A stretch of DNA of 64,000 bases. It comes from Escherichia coli (GTDB taxonomy: Bacteria > Pseudomonadota > Gammaproteobacteria > Enterobacterales > Enterobacteriaceae). Below, one piece after another: positions 1 to 48,234 of this stretch. The position numbers and the translations under genes are program-made. The notes under the pieces are model-generated. The model had not been told where the DNA came from, made no database searches, and saw only the letters and a list, made by a program, of their open reading frames with translations. How positions within the stretch are numbered: position 1 is the stretch's first letter; each line of letters opens with the position of its first letter. The stretch lies in the NCBI RefSeq assembly GCF_050320075.1, contig NZ_CP190018.1; one strand, 5' to 3'.

Positions 1-2
1 AT

Positions 3-155
3 AACGTTAAGGGCGTTGCAGAGGGTTCTAAGGCCATCAGAATCACAACGGACCAACTGGAACTACTCAAAGCACAGTCCGCAGTAGCAGGTTGCTCAAT
101 GATTCAGGTGTTAAGCGCAAAGGTCCATCAATTAGCGGATAGGCTGGGGGTTTAA
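3..155 (+). CDS. 3' end of an unknown ORF running in from upstream of the window (partial, about 50 codons visible)
   Basis: Open frame from position 3 with no stop until TAA at 153-155; that stop overlaps the ATG at 155 of the next ORF (TAATG). Not in the ORF track because it has no start inside the window. Confidence 0.3.
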   Translation, partial: NVKGVAEGSKAIRITTDQLELLKAQSAVAGCSMIQVLSAKVHQLADRLGV

Positions 156-580
156 TGCTATGCACATTTGATTATCATGCGTTTTATCGCCATAGAGGCC
201 ACCTTGTCCGTGAGAATAGCGGAACATGGAAAGATTTAACTCGTAATGCTGAACCCTTCACACACCAGCAATTAAAATCCCGCTTCTCCAGATGGAAGAA
301 TGCACCAGCAGATACTGGTGATTTTGAGATTATCCATACCTTCGATTATGCCTCAGAAGATGACCTTCACGATGCAATTAAGCTGATTGAAGACTTCAAT
401 ACCTCAGAAGATGTGGATGGTGACAAATATAAATCCCGTGGTAACCGCTATAACCGTGATGATATCACTCAGGCCATAAATGCTGGTCAATCTCAGCGAT
501 ACATTACAGAAAAATATGGTATTTCACGGAGACAGTATTTCTACGTTAAATCATTGATTAATAAAGACAATTCAAAATAA
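155..580 (+). CDS. hypothetical protein, 141 aa, with a C-terminal helix-turn-helix-like segment
   Basis: ORF-track ORF; ATG overlaps the upstream stop (TAATG); C-terminal stretch DDITQAINAGQSQRYITEKYGISRRQYFYV resembles a DNA-binding HTH; AT-rich codon usage like the rest of the element. Confidence 0.5.
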   Translation: MLCTFDYHAFYRHRGHLVRENSGTWKDLTRNAEPFTHQQLKSRFSRWKNAPADTGDFEIIHTFDYASEDDLHDAIKLIEDFNTSEDVDGDKYKSRGNRYNRDDITQAINAGQSQRYITEKYGISRRQYFYVKSLINKDNSK

Positions 581-717
581 CCATCTCAGTAACGGTAGAA
601 TGCACTTTACAGGCAGAGTTGCACCTTAATTTGATAAATTACCTTACCAGCCAGTGCAACTCCCTCTGTAACCCGCATGATTACTGGTCTCAGAATGGCT
701 ATTTTAAGAGGTCTGAG

Positions 718-1065
718 ATGTGTTTTGTAGGAGATTTAAAAATGAACAACTTCCCATTACAGATTTTCGTTGATAACGACACCGCTATGATGGTGCAAAG
801 CTTCAGTGATGCAGGTATTAGCATTGATTTTGACAGGCTGTTAAAGCTAATGGCTGATAATGAAGAAAACGTCTCTGACTTTATTCACTCGGTGGAGTTT
901 AACGAGCCTCGAATGATGTTACCAATTACAGACAGTAATATGAAAAGATTGGTTATTGAGCAAACGAACAAATACAGTATTTCCCCAGAGCAATTTTTGA
1001 AAGGTGCTGTGACAATCCTGTACAGCGATAATATTTTGGTTACGGATTCCGTGAGGGTTCACTAA
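718..1065 (+). CDS. hypothetical protein, about 115 aa (alternative start at 742)
   Basis: ORF-track ORF 619..1065 begins at a TTG; a better start is ATG 718 preceded by AAGAGG (706-711), or ATG 742 preceded by GGAG. No recognisable motif. Confidence 0.45.
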   Translation: MCFVGDLKMNNFPLQIFVDNDTAMMVQSFSDAGISIDFDRLLKLMADNEENVSDFIHSVEFNEPRMMLPITDSNMKRLVIEQTNKYSISPEQFLKGAVTILYSDNILVTDSVRVH

Positions 1066-1142
1066 TGGGCTTAATAATTGCTTGGACGTTGCTTGGCTTA
1101 TTTGTTGGTTGCTGGGTAGGCAGCACAGTAAATAGAAATTGA
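1065..1142 (+). CDS. candidate 25-aa hydrophobic micro-protein (MGLIIAWTLLGLFVGCWVGSTVNRN)
   Basis: ATG at 1065-1067 overlaps the TAA stop of the preceding ORF (TAATG); a single predicted transmembrane stretch followed by a polar tail; too short to appear in the ORF track. Confidence 0.3.
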   Translation: MGLIIAWTLLGLFVGCWVGSTVNRN

Positions 1143-1166
1143 TGTTACCAATCTGTTAAAAAGCTG

Positions 1167-1195
1167 TTGACAAATAACCTTAAGCATGAGATGAT
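1167..1195 (+). promoter_or_regulatory. sigma70-like promoter candidate (TTGACA, 17-bp spacer, TGn-GATGAT)
   Basis: Perfect -35 hexamer TTGACA at 1167-1172, 17-bp spacer, TG at 1187-1188 and a weak -10 GATGAT at 1190-1195; followed immediately by a short GAGAG/CTCTC hairpin and a T-run. Confidence 0.35.
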
Positions 1196-1359
1196 GGTAA
1201 TAGGGGAGAGCAACTCTCTCTTATTTTTCTTTCAAAATAATCCGATGGATGGATATTCTGAATTGGAAAGGTGCAATGCTTTTCGTCATGGCCTTTCAGT
1301 TTAGTCTGAGAGGCTATCTCAAAAAGTGCTTAATCATTCATTGAACCCTTTACAGCTTT

Positions 1360-1388
1360 GCCCTAACTCATGATTAGGGCTTTCTTTA
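1360..1388 (+). terminator. intrinsic-terminator-like hairpin (GCCCTAA / TTAGGGC) followed by TTTCTTT
   Basis: Perfect 7-bp inverted repeat at 1360-1366 and 1374-1380 with a 7-nt loop, then a U-rich tract. Confidence 0.4.
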
Positions 1389-1636
1389 AGAGTTTTTAAA
1401 CAGAGCTTTTAAAGAAAGTTTTTCCTGAAACTTCGTTAACGTTAAAGCAAACCTTCAAAGCCCTTCACAGATGAGGATGATTCCATGAATATCCGAATCA
1501 CCTATGTTTAGGGCTTTTTTCAGCTTTTAAAAAGCATACTTGGCAAACGCCTTTTAAGCCTCTTCTAAGTTCGAGGATGTCAGGTGTGCTTTTTAAAAAC
1601 TGAAACATAAATTATCTTAGAAGAGGAAAGGTATTA

Positions 1637-2341
1637 ATGGCTATCCGTGATGAAAATGAAATGATTATTGAAAACAAACCAAGTGCACTTGATATTCACG
1701 AATTAAGTTTGCGTGAATCTTTTGATAGAGCTTGGCGGGAATCACACGAAGTAAATAAAGGTCCATATATTCCACCAGAACCACTCGAGATTCCAAGAGT
1801 TGAAATTGATTTTTCTATGAACGAACGGTGTGAACTTGATTTGAAGTTGAAGCTACAACGCCGATATTTCCAAGCTATTAAAGACTCTCAAGAAGCAATG
1901 AGAAGTGTTTATGAGAAAATTCAGTCCAAGCTTGAAGACGAAATTGACGAAATGGCTATTTTGATGGAGCTTCAAACCAATCCTTATGCTTATTTCTCTC
2001 GACTAGACCGTGACGGTTGGGGGTATGACCCTGTAGAGATTGGTAAAGTGATTGCAGATTTACCAGAAGGTCAAAGGGTTATTCGTACGGAAAGGGCCAT
2101 CAGAGCGCCACATCAACTGTCTCTAATTGTTGCTGATAAATCACAAGCTGAGCTTGAAGAAATTGCCAAAGAGAAACTGATGAAAGCAAGAGAAAATGAG
2201 ATTAATTTGCTGAAATCAAGACTGGCTAAGCTGATTAGTGACCATCAAGCGCTGGCTAAGGAGTACCGTCAAGAGTTGGCACAGATTATCAGCTTCAATG
2301 ATTTTCTGAGTGTTCCACGAGAATTTAGCAAGGCTGTTTGA
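1637..2341 (+). CDS. hypothetical acidic protein, 234 aa
   Basis: Strong RBS (AGAGGAAAGG) 7 nt upstream of the ATG; glutamate- and lysine-rich with an apparently helical C-terminal half; no motif recognised. Confidence 0.6.
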   Translation: MAIRDENEMIIENKPSALDIHELSLRESFDRAWRESHEVNKGPYIPPEPLEIPRVEIDFSMNERCELDLKLKLQRRYFQAIKDSQEAMRSVYEKIQSKLEDEIDEMAILMELQTNPYAYFSRLDRDGWGYDPVEIGKVIADLPEGQRVIRTERAIRAPHQLSLIVADKSQAELEEIAKEKLMKARENEINLLKSRLAKLISDHQALAKEYRQELAQIISFNDFLSVPREFSKAV

Positions 2342-2364
2342 TTATGAATTAAAAGAGGTGATTA

Positions 2365-2583
2365 ATGTATGAAGACCGTTTGGAAACTATCAAGGCAGTT
2401 TGTGAAAAACTTAAAAACCAACCACGTAAACCAAAAACGGTAAAGAGTAAGCATCAGCCTGTCACCTCAAACAGCAAAATAAAGATTCGCAAAATTCCTT
2501 CGTGGTGCATTGACCGTATTCCGGTTGGTTCAAGAATTATTCGTGAAGATGGTGATTATCATTGGGTATCAGTTGTTGGTTAG
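2365..2583 (+). CDS. hypothetical small basic protein, 72 aa
   Basis: RBS AAAGAGGTGA upstream of the ATG; lysine/arginine-rich; followed by an intrinsic terminator. Confidence 0.5.
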   Translation: MYEDRLETIKAVCEKLKNQPRKPKTVKSKHQPVTSNSKIKIRKIPSWCIDRIPVGSRIIREDGDYHWVSVVG

Positions 2584-2598
2584 TTAGTAAAAATCTAC

Positions 2599-2638
2599 GG
2601 GAGAGATTATCGAGTGATATCGGTAGCTCTCCCTTTTT
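2599..2638 (+). terminator. rho-independent terminator
   Basis: GGGAGAG (2599-2605) pairs with CTCTCCC (2627-2633), followed by TTTTT. Confidence 0.55.
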
Positions 2639-2671
2639 CGTATATGAACACTTAAGAGGTGAAAAATATGA

Positions 2672-4804
2672 ATGAGCAAATTCACAGTTGATAGTTTTAT
2701 CGTTGAATTAAGCTTCAATGAAAACATTATTAAGGGCTTGCAAAGAGTTGAAAAGGCAGCTTTGCAGTCAGCACAAAGAATTGAAAAGAACCTAAATAAA
2801 GGTTTCAGGATTAATACAAAGCAGCTTGATAGTAATTTAACGGCTTCTTTAGGGCAGCTTGAAAGGAAGTTTAATAAGGCCTTTGACAAGATTGAACAGA
2901 GAGCAAGAAATACTAAAGCTTTCCAGTTTACCACCAGATTTAATGACACTGTTAATCCTCCAAAACAACCGAGACAGCCACGAATTAGCGGCAACAGAGC
3001 AATCACAGCAGCTTACTCAGCGAATATGAGCAAGCTAAAAGGCTTTGACCCTATTTTGCAGAAATACATCAAATCTCAGTTTTACGGGCTATCTGCTAAA
3101 GCCGGTTCAATGGATTCTTCAAAATTCAATGAGAAGTTAGCTCAGTTAAACGCTTCAGTCAGAGAAGCAATTGCTAAAGCCAGAGGTCATACATCCACCA
3201 GCATTAATGGTGACAGAGCAGCTAATAGTCTTGATAACCTGTCTTCAGCAGCAGTTAAAACAGCAGGTGCATTTATCTCAATGCAGGCTGTATTAGCCAG
3301 TTATCAGAAGATTATGGAAATTGGTTTACAGCGTGCAAGTGCTGAACGTTCAATTGATTTCGTATTTGATAAAGATGCAGGTCAAGTAAAAGAGTTCACA
3401 AAGTCATTAGCTCAAACAACGGGTTTAGATATCGCTGAACTGCAATCACAGTTTGCTGGTTTTGGTGCTTCAGCTAAAGAGTCTATGGGCATTCAAGGTT
3501 CTGAAGAACTTTTTAAAAATATGATTGGCTATGCTCGTCTGATGGGGAGAAGTGAAGAAGAGATTAAGCGAGCACTGACAGCATTATCACAGATGGCTGG
3601 TAAGGGTCAGGTTATGGCTGAAGAGCTTAAGGGGCAATTAGCTGAAGCTGTTCCTGGTATGGTTCAGGTATTCGCTAAAGCAACCGGAAGGAATGAACAA
3701 GAGCTATTTGATGCCATGAAGAAGGGGGCTTTAAAATCTGCCGATACTCTTCAGAAGGTCACTCAGGAACTGAATAAACAAATCACCGCTAAAGGTGGCT
3801 GGAAAGCTATTTCAGAAAGTACACAGGCACAACTAGGGAACCTGAAAAACTCTTGGAATACCACGCTTGATAGTATCTTCAGAGGTTCTGAAGATGGTCT
3901 GCAAGATTTTACAAGAAGCTTAACAACGCTTTTAAACGCTCTTGGTGGAAGTGGTAAAAGTCTTGGTGAATCTCTTGGTAGTCTCATGACTTCTATGTCA
4001 CATGGTGTCGATTCATTGACTGATATCAGCTACAGGGTAAGAGCATTCTTCGATGAGGTGACATTAGCTTACCGTTCACTAAATGACACTCAGAAAAAAA
4101 TTGTTGATGGTTTATCTGATGGGTTAATTGATGGTTTGAAGATGCTTGCCGTAGCTGTTACTGCTCAAAAGGCTGCAAATGTAGCTGGAGGCTTGTTAAA
4201 CCTTGCAAATGCTGTTACTTCATTCGGTGATGCTGTTAATAAAGCTAAAGCTGGCAAGGCTGGTTCTTCAGGTGGTGCGCTAAATAAAGTTGGTAGAGTT
4301 GTTCTTTATGCTGAGTTGGTGAACTTTGCTCTTGATAATTTAAACCCTGAAGCGGCTAAGAATCCGAACTTACACCAATCAGGTATTGGAACAGAGACAA
4401 ACTTCAACCCTGAATACAAAGGCGATTCATCTAAACCAAACCAAATTAATGATGGATGGGCTAAGATTGGTAGTTCTATCGCTGACTGGTTTAATGGTGC
4501 GGCTAATAAAATTGCTAACTTCCAAGACCCGATGAATAACTTTGTTAATAACACACAATCAACTCCACCAGCTATCACAGGTGACATGGTTAATAGCAAT
4601 GCTCAACTTGCTATGGCTGTATCAGAGTTAGGAAGAAAGGTAGACGCTTTAACAGTAGAAGCTAAGAAGCCTTTATCAGTTAATATCAAAGGTGAAGCAA
4701 TTGTTAGACCGGATGAACCAGCTTTCTTTACTTTCAATCAATCAGCTAATGACCAGTTCACGCAGGATATGCTCTTAAGTTCAAGCTATCCAGAGGAAGA
4801 ATGA
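2672..4804 (+). CDS. phage tail tape-measure-domain protein (TMP-like), 710 aa
   Basis: RBS AAGAGGTG upstream; helical, alanine/glycine/lysine-rich; the segment ALTALSQMAGKGQVMAEELKGQLAEAVPGMVQVFAKATGRNEQELFDAMKKGALKSADTLQKV matches, from memory, the conserved core of phage tape-measure proteins. Confidence 0.6.
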   Translation: MSKFTVDSFIVELSFNENIIKGLQRVEKAALQSAQRIEKNLNKGFRINTKQLDSNLTASLGQLERKFNKAFDKIEQRARNTKAFQFTTRFNDTVNPPKQPRQPRISGNRAITAAYSANMSKLKGFDPILQKYIKSQFYGLSAKAGSMDSSKFNEKLAQLNASVREAIAKARGHTSTSINGDRAANSLDNLSSAAVKTAGAFISMQAVLASYQKIMEIGLQRASAERSIDFVFDKDAGQVKEFTKSLAQTTGLDIAELQSQFAGFGASAKESMGIQGSEELFKNMIGYARLMGRSEEEIKRALTALSQMAGKGQVMAEELKGQLAEAVPGMVQVFAKATGRNEQELFDAMKKGALKSADTLQKVTQELNKQITAKGGWKAISESTQAQLGNLKNSWNTTLDSIFRGSEDGLQDFTRSLTTLLNALGGSGKSLGESLGSLMTSMSHGVDSLTDISYRVRAFFDEVTLAYRSLNDTQKKIVDGLSDGLIDGLKMLAVAVTAQKAANVAGGLLNLANAVTSFGDAVNKAKAGKAGSSGGALNKVGRVVLYAELVNFALDNLNPEAAKNPNLHQSGIGTETNFNPEYKGDSSKPNQINDGWAKIGSSIADWFNGAANKIANFQDPMNNFVNNTQSTPPAITGDMVNSNAQLAMAVSELGRKVDALTVEAKKPLSVNIKGEAIVRPDEPAFFTFNQSANDQFTQDMLLSSSYPEEE

Positions 4805-4967
4805 TTTCTTATATATCCGTGTGCTACGTGATTTCTTCTGAACAGATATACCCACTAAAAATTATTTTTTACGTAGCTCACGCTTAACAGAGAAAATACT
4901 TATATATCAAAGGCTTGGTTAAAAATGATTAAAATACACTAAGCCTTTGAAATCAAAGGAGAATTTA

Positions 4968-5741
4968 ATGATTTACTCTAATCAGATTCGTTACAGTGGT
5001 AAAGATGGCGTTTACTTTCATCTACAAGGCCAGCCAGATAATTTCTTGTCACTATCAGCTACTGAGAACATGGAATTTGACAGCCCTATGATGGTTACCA
5101 CTCAAAATATGCAATCAGGGCAGACTGTCACAGATAATGTAATGCGTTCACCCAGAACTATTTCAATCAGTGGTGTGGTTGTAGTTGGTGAATCCGGTAG
5201 TATCCTTATCTCAAGAGATAATAAGCTGGTGGAAAACTTCATAGACACTCTTGAAAACTGGCGTGACCAGAAGCAAATTATCTCAGTTGTCTGTAAAGAT
5301 GGTATTAAGATTGACGACTCAATTATTACAAACTTTAAAGCCTCTAAAGATGTTGGTATTGCCAATGGTCTTAGAATCCAATTAACTTTTCAGGAAATTA
5401 ACTTTAAAGCTATTGTGGGTCAGACTGATATCTCGGCTGCGACCGGAAGGACTTCTACCACAAGTGATGGTGGTGCTACCAGTAAAAAGAATACAGGGAA
5501 CACTACGACAAGCTTAGGTAACGGTATGTTGATGTGTCAGGAGCTATATAATCGCTCTACGAGTGAACTTACTAATGAGCAACTTCAAGCCCGTATCAAT
5601 TGTGGTAAAAATGTCAGAGTTAAGAACGGAAAAAGCACCTTCTCAGATGCCGCTAATGAGCAAGCTTCAAAGGTGCTTAATAATGCTGGTACAGGTAGTA
5701 CTTTGAAGAAGTATTCTGTTAATCCTAACAAGCGATACTGA
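4968..5741 (+). CDS. hypothetical protein, 257 aa; possibly a distal-tail-like protein, judged only by position after the tape-measure gene
   Basis: ORF-track ORF 4947..5741 begins at a TTG; preferred start is ATG 4968 preceded by AAGGAG. The N-terminal half looks beta-strand-rich and the C-terminal half is Ser/Thr/Gly/Asn-rich. Confidence 0.5.
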
Positions 5742-5755
5742 CGATAGAATCTCAA

Positions 5756-7279
5756 CTATATGATAACCTCATCAACATCTATTAAACCCCTCTCAGTGAC
5801 TTCAGAAAGCGACTGTATAGCCTCTGTAACGTTGTCTGAGGGGTTTTCTGTTATTGGTAAGGTGATTGCTTTACCGTTGTGAAAAGTTACTTTACAGCGA
5901 CGTTTAGCAGTATTTAAAACGACCTCTTTAACAGCACTTTTGATTATCAGTTGTGCTTCAATCCTTCCCGCCTTTGTAGTCAAGTCACAATCAGACAAAC
6001 AACCCACATCAATAGATTTAAGGCGTTGTGTCTCCTTCTCGATATCCGCATCAACTTGTGATAGCTCATTCTTTAGTTGTCTTAGTTTGCTGGTAATAGC
6101 GGACAAGTCTTCAATTTCAAGTGATAGCTGTACCAGCTTTTCAATATTGCTTGAGATGTGTTCACGGTGTAGCTTCAGTGTGTCTATGGTATTCGTCATA
6201 TCGCTATCAAATCGGTCAAGACGAGATAGCAGGGCAAGCAATGTACCATCGGTTTGCTTACGTGAAAGTCCTTTAGCACTACAACGGTTTTCATTACGAA
6301 GAGGACAACGATAAATCCCGTTTCTTGTATCGCTAAAGCCTGTGATAATCAAAGCATGACCACATTCAGAACAACGGATAACACCTTTGAAAAGATTCAC
6401 AGCCATTGGCTTATCTGAAGCAGGTTTTCTACCGTAACGAGCATATGATAGTTGTTGAACTTTGTAGAATGTTGTTTCATCTATAATTGCAGGATAATAA
6501 CCAGATATCTCCTCACAGCCTTTAGGTGTGAAGTAACCAATTACAGAGCGATTCTTCAAAAGGTCTTGCACTGAGGTTTGACCAAACTTACCTGCTTTGT
6601 ACTGGTTAAGCGTCTGGTGACCTTCAGCATTAAGAGTTCTGACAATCTCCCAGATAGACTTACCCTCTAACCGTAGCTGAAAGCACCTCTTCACAGTCTC
6701 CACTTTCTCAGGTATCACAGAGAAGCTTTTACGGTCATCATTAAGCTTAAGCCATGCAGGACAACGCCTAGAAATCTTGATACCAGCTTTAGCAGCTTCT
6801 TTCTTTGCATCCCATGCAGCTTGTATACGCTCAGCCTTACGTAATGATTCCTCATGCGCCCTTTGCATTATCAAAATGCTTTTAATCAGAGCTAACGGGT
6901 CTTTAAGAGATTCCCTTGTGTAATGTTCACCATCGGACAGGGTGACTACATCTACACCAGAGCGAAGAATGTTTCTGAGTAGCTCACTTGCTTGGTCTAC
7001 GTCCTGACGTGAGAGACGGTCTAAACTCTCGATTAGTAGTGTATCACCAGCTTTAACAAGCCCTTTCTCGATAGCGGTTAAAAAGTCACCTAAGCCACCT
7101 TTCAAGTGCTTACCAGTGAACCCGCTAACGCCTAAATCACGAAAAGTAAGGGATTCATCCAGATAGTACTCAGGATGAGCCTTAAGCCAATCAGTGACCA
7201 TCTTAGCCTGTCGTCTTAATGAGTCGCCTCTGGATTGCTTCTCAGATGAAAACCGGATGTAACTGATTGCACGTTTCAT
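5756..7279 (-). CDS. large serine recombinase (phage-type serine integrase), 507 aa
   Basis: N-terminal resolvase-type catalytic domain (ISYIRFSSEKQSRGDSL...LLIESLDRLSRQ), a central recombinase region, a cysteine-rich zinc-ribbon-like motif (CSECGHALIITG...YRCPLRNENRCSAKG) and a coiled-coil C-terminus; convergent with the cargo genes and adjacent to the host junction. Confidence 0.85.
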   Translation of the reverse strand: MKRAISYIRFSSEKQSRGDSLRRQAKMVTDWLKAHPEYYLDESLTFRDLGVSGFTGKHLKGGLGDFLTAIEKGLVKAGDTLLIESLDRLSRQDVDQASELLRNILRSGVDVVTLSDGEHYTRESLKDPLALIKSILIMQRAHEESLRKAERIQAAWDAKKEAAKAGIKISRRCPAWLKLNDDRKSFSVIPEKVETVKRCFQLRLEGKSIWEIVRTLNAEGHQTLNQYKAGKFGQTSVQDLLKNRSVIGYFTPKGCEEISGYYPAIIDETTFYKVQQLSYARYGRKPASDKPMAVNLFKGVIRCSECGHALIITGFSDTRNGIYRCPLRNENRCSAKGLSRKQTDGTLLALLSRLDRFDSDMTNTIDTLKLHREHISSNIEKLVQLSLEIEDLSAITSKLRQLKNELSQVDADIEKETQRLKSIDVGCLSDCDLTTKAGRIEAQLIIKSAVKEVVLNTAKRRCKVTFHNGKAITLPITENPSDNVTEAIQSLSEVTERGLIDVDEVII

Positions 7280-7346
7280 TGTTCACCTCACCAATAGCAG
7301 TTGGGCTTGTACCAACCCCTAGATTGTATCGCTTTAGATGGTGTAT

Positions 7347-7841
7347 TTAAACGTGTCTAATAAAAATCACCCGATTAACGCCGCGCTGATGTAAACCGCG
7401 ATTAAGCGTTTGTTCCTCTTCCCCTTTGGCGAAAAACTGTGGATGGCGGACTTCCACACCATAATTAAATTCGCCGGGAAGGGAATCGAGAAAATGCCAA
7501 AGCGCAGGCAGATCCCGTGGGCCAAATGTGGCAGGCAGTTGCAGCCAGTATTGCCCAATGCGCGGCGCTAACGGTGACATGCGGGTCAAAAATTCAGTCA
7601 CTAAATCATCGCAATGCCGTAATGCTGCCTGATGCGAAATGGTCGCCGGAAACTTAAAACAGAAGCGAAAATTATCTGTGGTCTGCTCACGCCAGCGCAG
7701 GACAACCTCGGATTTCGGCAGGGCGTAAAGCGTGGTGTTGCCCTCCACACAGTTAAAGTGGCGGGCATACTCTTCAAGGCTGGTGATCCCCAACCGCACC
7801 CATTTAGGATGCGACCATTGCGGCAGACCGATGTAAATCAT
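7347..7841 (-). pseudogene. yecE: yecE (DUF72 family), 5' portion only: reading frame interrupted by the insertion
   Basis: N-terminus [29 protein letters not shown] matches recalled YecE; the frame stops after 164 codons (intact YecE is about 272 aa from memory) exactly where GC-rich host sequence changes to the AT-rich element. Confidence 0.7.
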
Positions 7842-8404
7842 AATGCGTTGAGGATCTCTTCCACACTGCGCACACGGGCGATGCGTGGGTAGATATGGTT
7901 GATGCTGTTATTGTGCTGCTCGGCGCTGGCGGCGCTGCAGGCGTCTTCGGCAATCACCAGATTAAAACCGAGTTCCCAGGCATTGCGGGCGGTGGATTCA
8001 ACACCGATATTGGTCGAGATCCCACATAATACTATTGTATCGATACCCCGGCGGCGTAATTGCAACTCCAGATCTGTACCGTAAAACGCCCCCCACTGAC
8101 GTTTGATGATTTCGATATCACTGTCAGTTGCACCTAATGCAGCAGGATGTTGCCACCAGTTTTCGGGCAACACTTTAGCGGGGGAAGGGGCATCAACCGG
8201 CTGTTTTAATGCTTCGGCGTAATCGGCAGACCAGCCAACGCGCACCAGAAACACGGGCTGACCGCTGGCGCGAAATTTCACCGCCAGCTTCCCGGCGCGA
8301 TTAACCACCTCATCGGCAGTATGTGGACCTCCGGCAAAAGGTAAGATGCCTTCTTGTAAATCAATCACCACCAGCGCGGTGGTTTTAGCATTAAGTTCAA
8401 GCAT
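7838..8404 (-). CDS. yecD: isochorismatase-family hydrolase YecD
   Basis: [23 protein letters not shown]...; ORF-track ORF trimmed to the internal Met that gives a 188-aa product. Confidence 0.85.
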
Positions 8405-8713
8405 GATGACTCCTGACAAAACAAAATCGTGCCTCTCACCTTAATGCGATTAGCCGATGGCGGAACGACAAATTTTGTTAATTTTTATGAGTTCGGGCAA
8501 CACCTTTATAGCAAACTGGCGTAGAGTCTGATTTCAGGCCCGATATAAAGTGGTAACGAGGCGTTCCAGCGCGGGCCAGACTCTTACGGTGCGGCAGAAT
8601 TTCCAGTATAATAGCCGCCTTTTTTCATTCAGTTGTGACATACAGCTAACGCTGCGACTTGGTCACCTGCGCAGCAGGGGGCATCCGCCGGCAGCTAAGT
8701 TAAGGGATATCTC

Positions 8714-46185: not shown

Positions 46186-48234
46186 ATGAACATGTTTTTT
46201 AGGCTTACCGCGTTAGCTGGCCTGCTTGCAATAGCAGGCCAGACCTTCGCTGTAGAAGATATCACGCGTGCTGATCAAATTCCGGTATTAAAGGAAGAGA
46301 CGCAGCATGCGACGGTGAGTGAGCGCGTAACGTCGCGCTTCACCCGTTCTCATTATCGCCAGTTCGACCTCGATCAGGCATTTTCGGCCAAAATCTTTGA
46401 CCGCTATCTGAATCTGCTCGATTACAGCCACAACGTGCTGCTGGCAAGCGATGTTGAACAGTTCGCGAAAAAGAAAACCGAGTTAGGCGATGAACTGCGT
46501 TCAGGCAAACTCGACGTTTTCTACGATCTCTACAATCTGGCGCAAAAGCGTCGTTTTGAACGTTACCAGTACGCTTTGTCGGTACTGGAAAAGCCGATGG
46601 ATTTCACCGGTAACGACACTTATAACCTTGACCGCAGCAAAGCGCCCTGGCCGAAAAACGAGGCTGAGTTGAACGCGCTGTGGGACAGTAAAGTCAAATT
46701 CGACGAGTTAAGCCTGAAGCTGGCAGGAAAAACGGATAAAGAAATTCGTGAAACCCTGACTCGCCGCTACAAATTTGCCATTCGTCGTCTGGCGCAAACC
46801 AACAGCGAAGATGTTTTCTCGCTGGCAATGACGGCGTTTGCGCGTGAAATCGACCCGCATACCAACTATCTTTCCCCGCGTAATACCGAACAGTTCAACA
46901 CTGAAATGAGTTTGTCGCTGGAAGGTATTGGCGCAGTTCTGCAAATGGATGATGACTACACCGTTATCAATTCGATGGTGGCAGGTGGTCCGGCAGCGAA
47001 GAGTAAAGCTATCAGCGTTGGTGACAAAATTGTCGGTGTTGGTCAAACAGGCAAGCCGATGGTTGACGTGATTGGCTGGCGTCTTGATGATGTGGTTGCC
47101 TTAATTAAAGGGCCGAAGGGCAGTAAAGTTCGTCTGGAAATTTTACCTGCTGGTAAAGGGACCAAGACCCGTACTGTAACGTTGACCCGTGAACGTATTC
47201 GCCTCGAAGACCGTGCGGTTAAAATGTCGGTGAAGACCGTCGGTAAAGAGAAAGTCGGCGTTCTGGATATTCCAGGTTTCTATGTGGGTTTGACAGACGA
47301 TGTCAAAGTGCAGTTGCAGAAACTGGAAAAACAGAATGTCAGCAGTGTCATCATCGACCTGCGTAGCAATGGCGGTGGGGCGTTGACCGAAGCGGTATCG
47401 CTCTCCGGTCTGTTCATTCCATCCGGTCCGATTGTTCAGGTCCGTGATAACAACGGTAAAGTTCGTGAAGACAGCGATACCGATGGGCAGGTTTTCTATA
47501 AAGGCCCGCTGGTGGTGCTGGTTGACCGCTTCAGTGCTTCGGCTTCAGAAATCTTTGCCGCGGCAATGCAGGATTACGGTCGTGCGCTGGTTGTGGGTGA
47601 ACCGACGTTTGGTAAAGGCACCGTTCAGCAATACCGTTCATTGAACCGTATTTACGATCAGATGTTACGTCCTGAATGGCCAGCGCTGGGTTCTGTGCAG
47701 TACACGATCCAGAAATTCTATCGCGTTAACGGCGGCAGTACGCAACGTAAAGGCGTAACGCCAGACATCATCATGCCGACGGGTAATGAAGAAACGGAAA
47801 CTGGTGAGAAATTCGAAGATAACGCGCTGCCGTGGGATAGCATCGATGCCGCGACCTATGTGAAATCAGGCGATTTAACGGCCTTTGGACCGGAGCTGCT
47901 GAAGGAACATAATGCGCGTATCGCGAAAGATCCTGAGTTCCAGAACATCATGAAGGATATCGCGCGCTTCAACGCCATGAAGGACAAGCGCAATATCGTT
48001 TCTCTGAATTACGCTGTGCGTGAGAAAGAGAATAATGAAGATGATGCGACGCGTCTGGCGCGTTTGAACGAACGTTTTAAACGCGAAGGTAAACCGGAGT
48101 TGAAGAAACTGGATGATCTACCGAAAGATTACCAGGAGCCGGATCCTTATCTGGATGAGACGGTGAATATCGCACTCGATCTGGCGAAGCTTGAAAAAGC
48201 CAGACCCGCGGAACAACCCGCTCCCGTCAAGTAA
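46186..48234 (+). CDS. prc: tail-specific protease (C-terminal processing protease)
   Basis: About 682 aa with a signal peptide, a PDZ domain and an S41 peptidase domain. Confidence 0.9.
   Translation: MNMFFRLTALAGLLAIAGQTFAVEDITRADQIPVLKEETQHATVSERVTSRFTRSHYRQFDLDQAFSAKIFDRYLNLLDYSHNVLLASDVEQFAKKKTELGDELRSGKLDVFYDLYNLAQKRRFERYQYALSVLEKPMDFTGNDTYNLDRSKAPWPKNEAELNALWDSKVKFDELSLKLAGKTDKEIRETLTRRYKFAIRRLAQTNSEDVFSLAMTAFAREIDPHTNYLSPRNTEQFNTEMSLSLEGIGAVLQMDDDYTVINSMVAGGPAAKSKAISVGDKIVGVGQTGKPMVDVIGWRLDDVVALIKGPKGSKVRLEILPAGKGTKTRTVTLTRERIRLEDRAVKMSVKTVGKEKVGVLDIPGFYVGLTDDVKVQLQKLEKQNVSSVIIDLRSNGGGALTEAVSLSGLFIPSGPIVQVRDNNGKVREDSDTDGQVFYKGPLVVLVDRFSASASEIFAAAMQDYGRALVVGEPTFGKGTVQQYRSLNRIYDQMLRPEWPALGSVQYTIQKFYRVNGGSTQRKGVTPDIIMPTGNEETETGEKFEDNALPWDSIDAATYVKSGDLTAFGPELLKEHNARIAKDPEFQNIMKDIARFNAMKDKRNIVSLNYAVREKENNEDDATRLARLNERFKREGKPELKKLDDLPKDYQEPDPYLDETVNIALDLAKLEKARPAEQPAPVK

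Follow-up and report, generated by a model that had tools for sequence, protein, structure and literature searches.

Among described phage satellites, the closest counterparts of the locus treated here come from Vibrio. Every PLE, a satellite of the virulent myovirus ICP1, has chaperone, tape-measure and baseplate-hub genes, which share 19-41% identity with the helper genes and build chimeric tails; a large serine recombinase is also part of the PLEs, as is a conserved small RNA with a regulatory role (PMC11838301, 2025 preprint). The EPIPs of Mycolicibacterium are satellites that combine a tape-measure gene with a serine integrase (bioRxiv 10.64898/2025.12.02.691453). Is there anything comparable in Enterobacteriaceae? 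The DNA considered here is a stretch of 64,000 nt of an Escherichia coli chromosome (hereafter the window; RefSeq assembly GCF_050320075.1, contig NZ_CP190018.1), 100% identical to strain YZLc1-3, with NZ_CP123240.1 as an identical record. Its positions 3 to 1142 hold four open reading frames (ORFs), namely the 3' half of a 96-codon gene called up96, followed by ORF1, ORF2 and a micro-ORF of 25 codons. With slightly more than even confidence, we take these four ORFs for the control region of a ~12-kb integrative and replicative island that acts like a satellite of Felix O1-type (Ounavirinae) virulent phages. Set among the known systems, the locus appears to be a satellite control module in a PLE-like enterobacterial island, and neither this island family nor any satellite of Felixounavirus is described in the literature searched.

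The resemblance to PLEs is architectural. The island is small (12 kb versus ~18 kb for PLEs), it has a large serine recombinase and its own replication initiator, and nearly all of its genes are unannotated. Like a PLE, it carries a partial tail module, with tape-measure and baseplate-proximal genes of low-to-moderate identity to the helper lying beside candidate chaperone genes, and a candidate structured RNA is placed just 5' of this module, PLEs having a small RNA of their own. The differences are equally plain. The host belongs to Enterobacteriaceae and the presumed helper to Ounavirinae, no capsid-remodelling gene or other PLE effector was recognised in the island, and its Citrobacter relatives carry a tyrosine integrase. 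We know of no described PLE counterpart of the regulatory genes and peptide that make up the control region. EPIPs differ in encoding small terminase, capsid-related and head-tail connector proteins, all absent from the island, and in having an unrelated host and a temperate helper.

What ties the island to Felix O1-type phages? Its sole recognisable virion genes, tape-measure and Dit-like, are homologues of genes that are adjacent in Felixounavirus. The Dit-like protein has 70% amino-acid identity to gp38 of the Salmonella phage BPS15Q2, whose gene lies directly downstream of the Felixounavirus tape-measure gene, and for the tape-measure protein the identity between island and Felixounavirus is 27% along the entire sequence, the 5' end of the gene reaching 75-80% at nucleotide level. 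A tblastn search with all island proteins, run on 86.9 of the 89.8 kb of a Felixounavirus genome, gave matches for these two only; therefore the regulators were not copied from the helper. A megablast of window positions 1-2400 against phages likewise gave no match. The non-coding DNA is shared in a different manner. Island DNA 5' of the dam gene and left of the window (locus L001, 33206-33229, 33327-33360 and 33403-33460) is near-identical to three short non-coding phage segments (544-567, 689-722 and 8876-8931), one of which is the palindrome AGATATCC-N6-GGATATCT, just upstream of a rightward gene cluster of the phage. In addition, the promoters of the island are overlaid by TGTTA repeats at 11-bp spacing, and BPS15Q2 has 18 phased pairs of the same motif, 13 of them inside one 800-bp gene-free region (L019 1-800) that contains ~26 TGTTA copies at this spacing. 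The 800-bp region is conserved in 255 Felixounavirus-like records, in several of which it is close to the genome end; in phage Andreotti it is annotated as a repeat_region. A promoter-like phage site at 39949, upstream of gp48 and the holin gene, has the layout of the up96 promoter. No phased TGTTA pair was found in the 55.5 kb of flanking chromosome in the window, and the four phased pairs of the island are all at two promoters, the one of up96 and the one behind the micro-ORF. Because the repeats and the non-coding segments are common to island and phage, the island promoters look, by sequence comparison, as if they were built from helper-type elements. Other features expected of a satellite are also present, that is, a recombinase together with a split attachment site in yecE, a length of 12.2 kb, and matches of the replication protein to phage O-like proteins.

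How are the four genes organised? By direct reading of the sequence, TAATG occurs at 153-157, where a TAA (153-155) overlaps an ATG (155-157), and again at 1063-1067, where TAA 1063-1065 overlaps ATG 1065-1067. The first-pass annotation, made from the letters of the window, had placed both overlaps correctly and had read the genes as one translationally coupled chain. ORF1, however, ends at 580 and ORF2 begins at 742, with an inverted repeat in the gap of 160 bp between them, so that the locus is two coupled pairs, up96 with ORF1 and ORF2 with the micro-ORF, rather than one chain. The start of ORF2, ATG 742 with AGGAG at 729-733 in front of it, is the same in RefSeq and is conserved in homologues. 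The tightness of the coupling was well judged. Two findings had been named as fatal to that annotation, namely loss of the coupling in homologous elements and homology of these genes to phage structural or packaging proteins; the coupling is conserved in relatives, and no such homology was found for these genes.

The first pair begins with up96, of which the window shows the 3' half (3-155, plus strand). The gene starts 135 nt left of the window and is complete in NZ_CP123240.1. Members of its family (92-97 aa) were present in every island examined, and homologues, all annotated as 'hypothetical', come from E. coli, E. albertii, Citrobacter and Salmonella. In the Felixounavirus-like phage records retrieved, the main hosts are these same bacteria. 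The invariant residues T4, T6, R7 and R59, I60 stand at the starts of two strand-helix-helix-like sequence repeats, a pattern that probably makes up96 a regulator of the tandem ribbon-helix-helix (RHH) type; among Pfam and PDB profiles, no match reached significance (Omega_Repress E 0.16, DndE E 0.02 in 3 members). The junction at its end is well kept. Both Citrobacter loci have the sequence GGxGGTTTAATG, as do 10 of the first 11 E. coli loci examined; the exception, L009, has GGAGGTTTGATG with a TGATG overlap retained, and the Salmonella locus has a 2-nt gap in place of the overlap. The junction is kept whichever gene comes next, be it one of the ORF1 family or one of a 59-71-aa family followed by an HNH endonuclease.

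ORF1 (155-580, plus strand; 141 aa) is predicted to consist of an N-terminal beta-rich domain without structural neighbour, a disordered linker and a C-terminal three-helix helix-turn-helix (HTH), the model having a pLDDT of 72; the HTH-like segment suspected at its C-terminus from sequence is thus seen in the structure model as well. Breakpoints of BLAST alignments between island types fall at window positions 157-160, exactly at the up96/ORF1 junction, and the whole up96 and ORF1 segment occurs at nucleotide level in only 59 of 5426 E. coli genomes, so ORF1 seems to be an exchangeable accessory gene. Most islands do without this swappable gene, and ORF1, ORF2 and the micro-ORF do not make up a single unit, unlike in the first reading. 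ORF1 was also considered as a degenerate HNH endonuclease, from low-probability Foldseek matches and from the HNH genes that occupy its slot in other islands; the idea was rejected when a profile comparison with island HNH proteins gave no match. Behind ORF1, at 600-678, lies an inverted repeat with 25-nt arms (600-624 and 654-678) and a 29-nt spacer. The arm core is GAGTTGCAC/GTGCAACTC in the window and GAGTGAGAC/GTCTCACTC in L003, L006, L009 and L011, both arms being altered together. The arm type tracks the HTH type of ORF1, which says little, as the two are physically linked.

Such features raise an alternative, which is that the proteins of the locus are accessory factors of DNA processing, bending or marking the island DNA for excision, for initiation of replication or for recognition by the helper terminase. 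In excision the factor would be a directionality factor for the serine recombinase, and the TGTTA repeats would be a packaging or origin signal copied from the terminal region of the helper. The HTH of ORF1 resembles, in structure search, those of resolvases and small terminases, along with TrpR, sigma region 4 and Mu C; directly 3' of ORF1 stands the long inverted repeat, with arms that change in step with the type of HTH, HNH endonucleases take the ORF1 slot in other islands, and large serine recombinases are known to need a separate directionality factor. Yet ORF1 is dispensable in most islands, so it is not an essential packaging or excision factor, and, as said, its profile does not match those of the island HNH proteins.

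The same alternative draws on ORF2 (742-1065, plus strand; 107 aa), which models as a TraY-like tandem RHH DNA-binding protein. In the model two strand-helix-helix repeats in one chain form a pseudo-dimer, and the best structural match is TraY of the F plasmid, a relaxosome accessory protein. The likeness is limited, with 10% sequence identity and no profile match to TraY, no relaxase or oriT context in the island, and an extra helix between the two repeats of ORF2 which TraY and other single-chain tandem RHH proteins do not have. The protein had been called unknown in the first-pass annotation, and this holds as far as profiles are concerned, for neither Pfam nor PDB profiles, those of RHH families included, gave a match; the predicted fold is what is new. 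Apart from the main subject, the ORF2 family is almost wholly confined to Escherichia and comprises 3399 clusters at 90% identity versus only about five full-length clusters at 50%, an allelic micro-diversity unusually high for a protein of 107 aa.

The second pair ends with the micro-ORF (1065-1142, plus strand), which overlaps the ORF2 stop and encodes 25 aa, MGLIIAWTLLGLFVGCWVGSTVNRN, a predicted single-pass membrane peptide. Is so short a frame a gene? In all 14 distinct island loci compared, which come from E. coli, Salmonella and Citrobacter, a hydrophobic ORF of 22-34 codons begins on the stop of the preceding gene (TAATG or ATGA). The coupling persists where ORF2 is only 25-27% identical, and in one island with a 74-aa gene inserted after ORF2, the peptide gene is coupled to the 74-aa gene instead. 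The ratio of nonsynonymous to synonymous polymorphism (pN/pS) is 0.2-0.65 in 20 of 21 pairs, synonymous sites being close to saturation when the more divergent groups of alleles are compared; the remaining pair is near-identical and shows just four differences. All versions of the peptide have a hydrophobic helix (Kyte-Doolittle 17-aa window 2.1-2.8) followed by a short polar or basic tail. Because the overlap is kept in all 14 loci, the product is hydrophobic throughout and the frame is under purifying selection, we conclude from these comparisons that the hydrophobic ORF pointed out at first reading is a real gene of a small membrane protein, absent from the RefSeq annotation. Five peptide variants searched against NCBIfam gave chance-level matches only. 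Homology to small Felixounavirus proteins such as gp48, encoded next to the holin, was considered and dropped, as gp48 is not hydrophobic; nor does the peptide type co-vary with the allele of ORF2, of p234 (a gene of the tail operon), of the tape-measure gene or of the Dit-like gene, the modules recombining independently.

Could the locus then be a toxin-antitoxin (TA), exclusion or abortive-infection cassette, as first proposed? In this scenario ORF2 or up96 would be an RHH antitoxin or autorepressor, the peptide or ORF1 an effector that damages the membrane or blocks phage entry, and the coupling would hold their ratio safe. The peptide is strongly hydrophobic and meets the size and topology of type I toxins, being shorter than 60 aa with one transmembrane helix, and it must be selected in its own right since it is conserved even where ORF2 is swapped. 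Very short single-pass hydrophobic peptides are likewise encoded by other mobile elements, among them LidI of PLE, HK97 gp15, T4 Imm, Hok, Ibs and TisB. The translation of hok is coupled to the overlapping mok frame, much as that of the island peptide is to its upstream frame, and small membrane proteins like HK97 gp15 block tape-measure-dependent DNA entry. Stop-start overlaps are typical of TA pairs, and small adjacent overlapping genes with repeats from -35 to -10 of the promoter of the up96 pair are what a type II system would show. However, the reading fails on the three other hallmarks of type II systems. There is no toxin family, ORF1 having an HTH and no toxin fold, and no match of any of the four products to a toxin or defence family. 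There is no separate neutralising segment, ORF2 being in its model a complete pseudo-dimeric RHH protein whose two repeats fill nearly all 107 aa, with only ~9 low-confidence C-terminal residues left over and no extra toxin-binding tail. And there is no independent cassette: the pair of ORF2 and peptide was never found outside the island, its frequency is about that of the Dit-like gene (526 versus 541 places), and it holds a fixed position between the replication and regulatory genes and the tail module, while mobile TA cassettes do not sit at one fixed position. As for a type I system, a simple scan found no minus-strand promoter across 1040-1240, the conserved promoter downstream being on the same strand and pointing away, and no antisense RNA was seen; the peptide is also shorter than LidI, gp15, Imm and Hok and shows no sequence similarity to them. 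A TA, abortive-infection or exclusion cassette is thus decidedly unlikely, and a toxic or exclusion role of the peptide itself is possible. What stands of the first proposal is a mobile, phage-related and tightly coupled locus tied to phage conflict, so that it is partly supported. By analogy with LidI, HK97 gp15 and T4 Imm, our favoured guess for the peptide would be the timing of lysis or a block of phage DNA entry.

The promoters bear on the choice between DNA processing and control of transcription. Directly after the peptide stop, three TGTT(A/G) repeats at 11-bp spacing (1143, 1154 and 1165, plus strand) lead into a predicted sigma-70-like promoter (the whole at 1143-1195), the third of them forming TGTTGACA, its -35 element (1167-1172); the -10 element is at 1190-1195. 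This leader promoter reads TTGACA, 17 nt, GATGAT in the window, with CATAAT in most relatives, and is conserved in E. coli, Salmonella and Citrobacter islands. The up96 operon has a TTGACA-N17-TATGAT promoter that is overlain by four repeats from its -35 through the spacer to its -10, 176-213 nt left of the window, and in islands with the 184-aa type of replication protein (Rep), two repeats are ahead of the TTGACA of the promoter upstream of rep184. Of the first 11 E. coli loci examined, 9 have repeats at both promoters, as has Citrobacter; in Salmonella they are at the leader promoter. A phage array that is gene-free and close to the genome end in several records would suit a processing signal, as would the TraY likeness of ORF2. 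However, the repeats coincide precisely with the -35 and -10 of two consensus island promoters and with the promoter-like phage site, which fits control of transcription better, and they stay constant while the type of replication protein varies. We therefore regard a DNA-processing role as unlikely.

The control of transcription has good precedents. The typical RHH protein recognises short repeats that follow each other at one helical turn and autoregulates the operon that encodes it: ParR of plasmid R1 acts on 11-bp iterons in parC, the RHH repressors CopG, omega, Arc and Mnt are autoregulatory, and in the immI region of P22 two RHH repressors, Arc and Mnt, gate a downstream effector. The island resembles these systems in that the promoter of a predicted RHH-gene operon is set in short direct repeats one helical turn apart. 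It differs from them in that no sequence homology was detected and in that its repeats occur also in a second replicon, the presumed helper phage.

What might be transcribed from the leader promoter? The region 1202-1388 (plus strand) is a candidate structured leader or small RNA of ~190 nt, comprising a 5' hairpin (1203-1222), the near-invariant block GTGCAATGCTTTTCG (1271-1285), a hairpin at 1291-1314 and a terminator at 1360-1388; a further terminator is predicted beyond it at ~1500-1520. The block varies by one missing base or a single substitution in L009, L011, L017, L025 and L026. RNAalifold found compensatory changes in 11 of 20 predicted pairs, and the second hairpin has at least four compensatory variants. 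The candidate RNA has no Rfam match, as is true of the whole of window positions 1-8500. The hairpin at 1199-1225 was considered as the terminator of the preceding operon; its stem is conserved in relatives and its T-run is not, which speaks rather for a 5' hairpin belonging to the following transcript. The block together with GCCTTTCA matches Felixounavirus BPS15Q2 at 48150-48177, antisense to the gp66 mRNA, with a BLAST E of 0.05 for a 14-mer and a predicted duplex of -36 kcal/mol; phages ekra and NBEco005 retain the target site, and a Mooglevirus has it with 2 mismatches. The candidate RNA could, by analogy, be the counterpart of the PLE small RNA SviR. Further downstream, just 5' of p234, there is another inverted repeat of 28 nt (1518-1545 and 1578-1605; 86% complementary, 32-nt spacer), conserved in several islands, which could serve the tail-module operon as operator, attenuator or processing site.

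Taken as the control region of a satellite-like island, the locus might work as follows. Up96 and ORF2 would be single-chain tandem RHH DNA-binding proteins and ORF1 an optional HTH protein. At the end of each RHH gene, the stop-start overlap would hand ribosomes to the next gene, so that each pair would be made in fixed proportion, the 25-aa membrane peptide thus being produced together with ORF2. Then which protein reads the repeats? We infer that it is an island RHH protein, most likely up96, because up96 is the first gene behind a promoter covered by the repeats, is universal in the islands, and has predicted DNA-reading residues as invariant as the repeats themselves; ORF2 may act on a different target, specific to each allele. 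The strong promoter predicted behind the peptide gene would feed the structured leader RNA and, past the terminators, the tail-module operon (p234, p72, tape-measure and Dit-like). The leader would stop at the terminators (1360-1388 and ~1500-1520) unless infection alters the conditions, and in this way the tail module would be gated. The repeats massed in the helper genome would couple island expression to infection, whether by being recognised by a helper protein or by titrating an island repressor.

Several points should be noted that weigh against this scenario. Since the island has no recognisable capsid-size or packaging gene, it would be called a satellite only by analogy with PLEs. The assignment of up96 to the RHH class is drawn only from its pattern of residues, and the profile comparison of up96 with ORF2 (hhalign) gave a probability of 5%, which is not significant; the two were accordingly dropped as paralogues. 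The models of ORF1 and ORF2 are of moderate confidence (pLDDT 72-76) and were built from shallow alignments, and no promoter or operator was identified for ORF2 itself. L009 and L011 have only degenerate repeats at the leader promoter and none upstream of up97; that these islands have up96-type proteins and poor repeats weakens the link between the two. Moreover, the repeats resemble the direct-repeat boxes of host regulators of the OmpR/PhoB family, and their binder could be a host or helper protein.

A more specific version of the scenario is a helper-sensing switch by DNA mimicry. An RHH repressor would sit on the 3-4 TGTTA iterons of each promoter and would be titrated by the ~26-copy phage array when the phage genome enters and replicates, freeing the leader RNA and the tail operon. 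The 15-nt block of the leader would pair with the gp66 mRNA, and the peptide at the inner membrane would block tape-measure-dependent DNA entry or shift the timing of lysis, with the island tape-measure variant escaping. In all its parts together, this is very doubtful.

The rest of the island is as follows. It splits yecE (DUF72) between yecN and yecD. From the left there are a variable cargo gene, a Dam-type methylase, a 322-aa protein that matches phage O-like replication-initiation PHROGs (E 1.7e-7), a 98-aa protein, and then up96, ORF1, ORF2 and the micro-ORF; after ~500 bp of non-coding DNA come p234, p72, the tape-measure gene, the Dit-like gene and, on the opposite strand, the large serine recombinase. 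p234 and p72 (1637-2583, plus strand; p234 at 1637-2341 and p72 at 2365-2583) lie directly 5' of the tape-measure gene, and their synteny is kept in all islands. From this position they may be tail-assembly chaperones; no homology was detected for either, including to the two Felixounavirus tail-assembly chaperones at the equivalent position. p234 has two allele classes with a mutual identity of only ~25%. The tape-measure protein (2672-4804, plus strand; 710 aa) matches PHROG 4036 (E 1e-79) and TIGR02675, with Pfam TMP_3 in homologues. The Dit-like 'baseplate' protein (4947-5741, plus strand) matches PHROG 3721 (E 5e-128), with Pfam Dit_like in homologues. The large serine recombinase or integrase (5756-7279, minus strand), which forms the right end of the island, matches PHROG 95 (E 2e-79), with Pfam Resolvase, Recombinase and Zn_ribbon_recom in homologues. 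The right border is the 5' fragment of yecE (7365-7841, minus strand; from the RefSeq annotation of the identical record), the other fragment being 12.2 kb to the left. The upstream ORF, ORF1, ORF2, p234 and p72 had no match in PHROGs, NCBIfam, PADLOC or Pfam.

The left end is a variable cargo slot (L001 31490-32410, minus strand; L004 2649-3197; L006 2000-4118; L009 3933-4484), which is occupied by an unknown protein of 306 aa, a small resolvase/invertase, an HNH/AP2-type endonuclease or further unknowns. PADLOC found no defence system in this cargo, its sole match being a homing-endonuclease model on the HNH/AP2 gene of L006. In some genomes, IS3- or IS21-family insertion sequence (IS) elements interrupt the tape-measure or recombinase gene (L015 10271-11732; L008 12367-14089), and such copies of the island are thereby inactivated. 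Two Citrobacter freundii loci, L025 and L026, keep the whole core (rep183, up92, a 66-aa gene, ORF2, peptide, iterons, leader and tail module); behind their Dit-like gene the serine recombinase is missing, and the opposite end carries a tyrosine integrase.

How widely is the island distributed? The Dit-like gene was found in 473 of 5426 complete E. coli genomes (541 places) and the segment of ORF2 and micro-ORF in 477 (526 places), all chromosomal, so that ~9% of E. coli genomes have the island. In E. coli the island occupies three attachment sites (yecE, yciI-tonB and msyB/mdtG-lpxL), with one gene order at all of them; Salmonella, at yecE, and Citrobacter share this order, and each module has several deep alleles that recombine freely. 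This distribution bears on one more explanation, that the island is a decaying prophage remnant in which the ORFs are functionless leftovers and the overlaps are historical. An island with only two virion genes, at a site (yecE) known for integration of Stx phages and with some copies broken by IS elements, might give that impression. However, the order is the same in hundreds of genomes, at three E. coli sites and in three genera, despite 25-60% divergence of every module, the 25-codon ORF is under purifying selection, the promoters are intact, and the hairpins show compensatory changes. Decay is hardly credible on these grounds.

What would a control region of this kind mean for the biology of Enterobacteria and their phages? 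Felix O1-type phages are in wide use for typing, biocontrol and therapy in Salmonella and E. coli, and where they fail on particular strains, the cause could be this satellite-like island, present in ~9% of complete E. coli genomes and with relatives in Salmonella and Citrobacter. The 25-codon gene is conserved across genera yet missing from RefSeq. The control region, with its two predicted RHH proteins, an optional HTH protein, shared iterons and a candidate RNA, is a testable circuit for the sensing of a virulent helper. If the satellite-like reading is true, chimeric-tail satellites, so far shown only for the PLEs of Vibrio, would be extended to Enterobacteria. And if the switch by DNA mimicry were also true, the island would be the first satellite of Ounavirinae and would follow a new principle of induction, that is, titration of a repressor by helper DNA.

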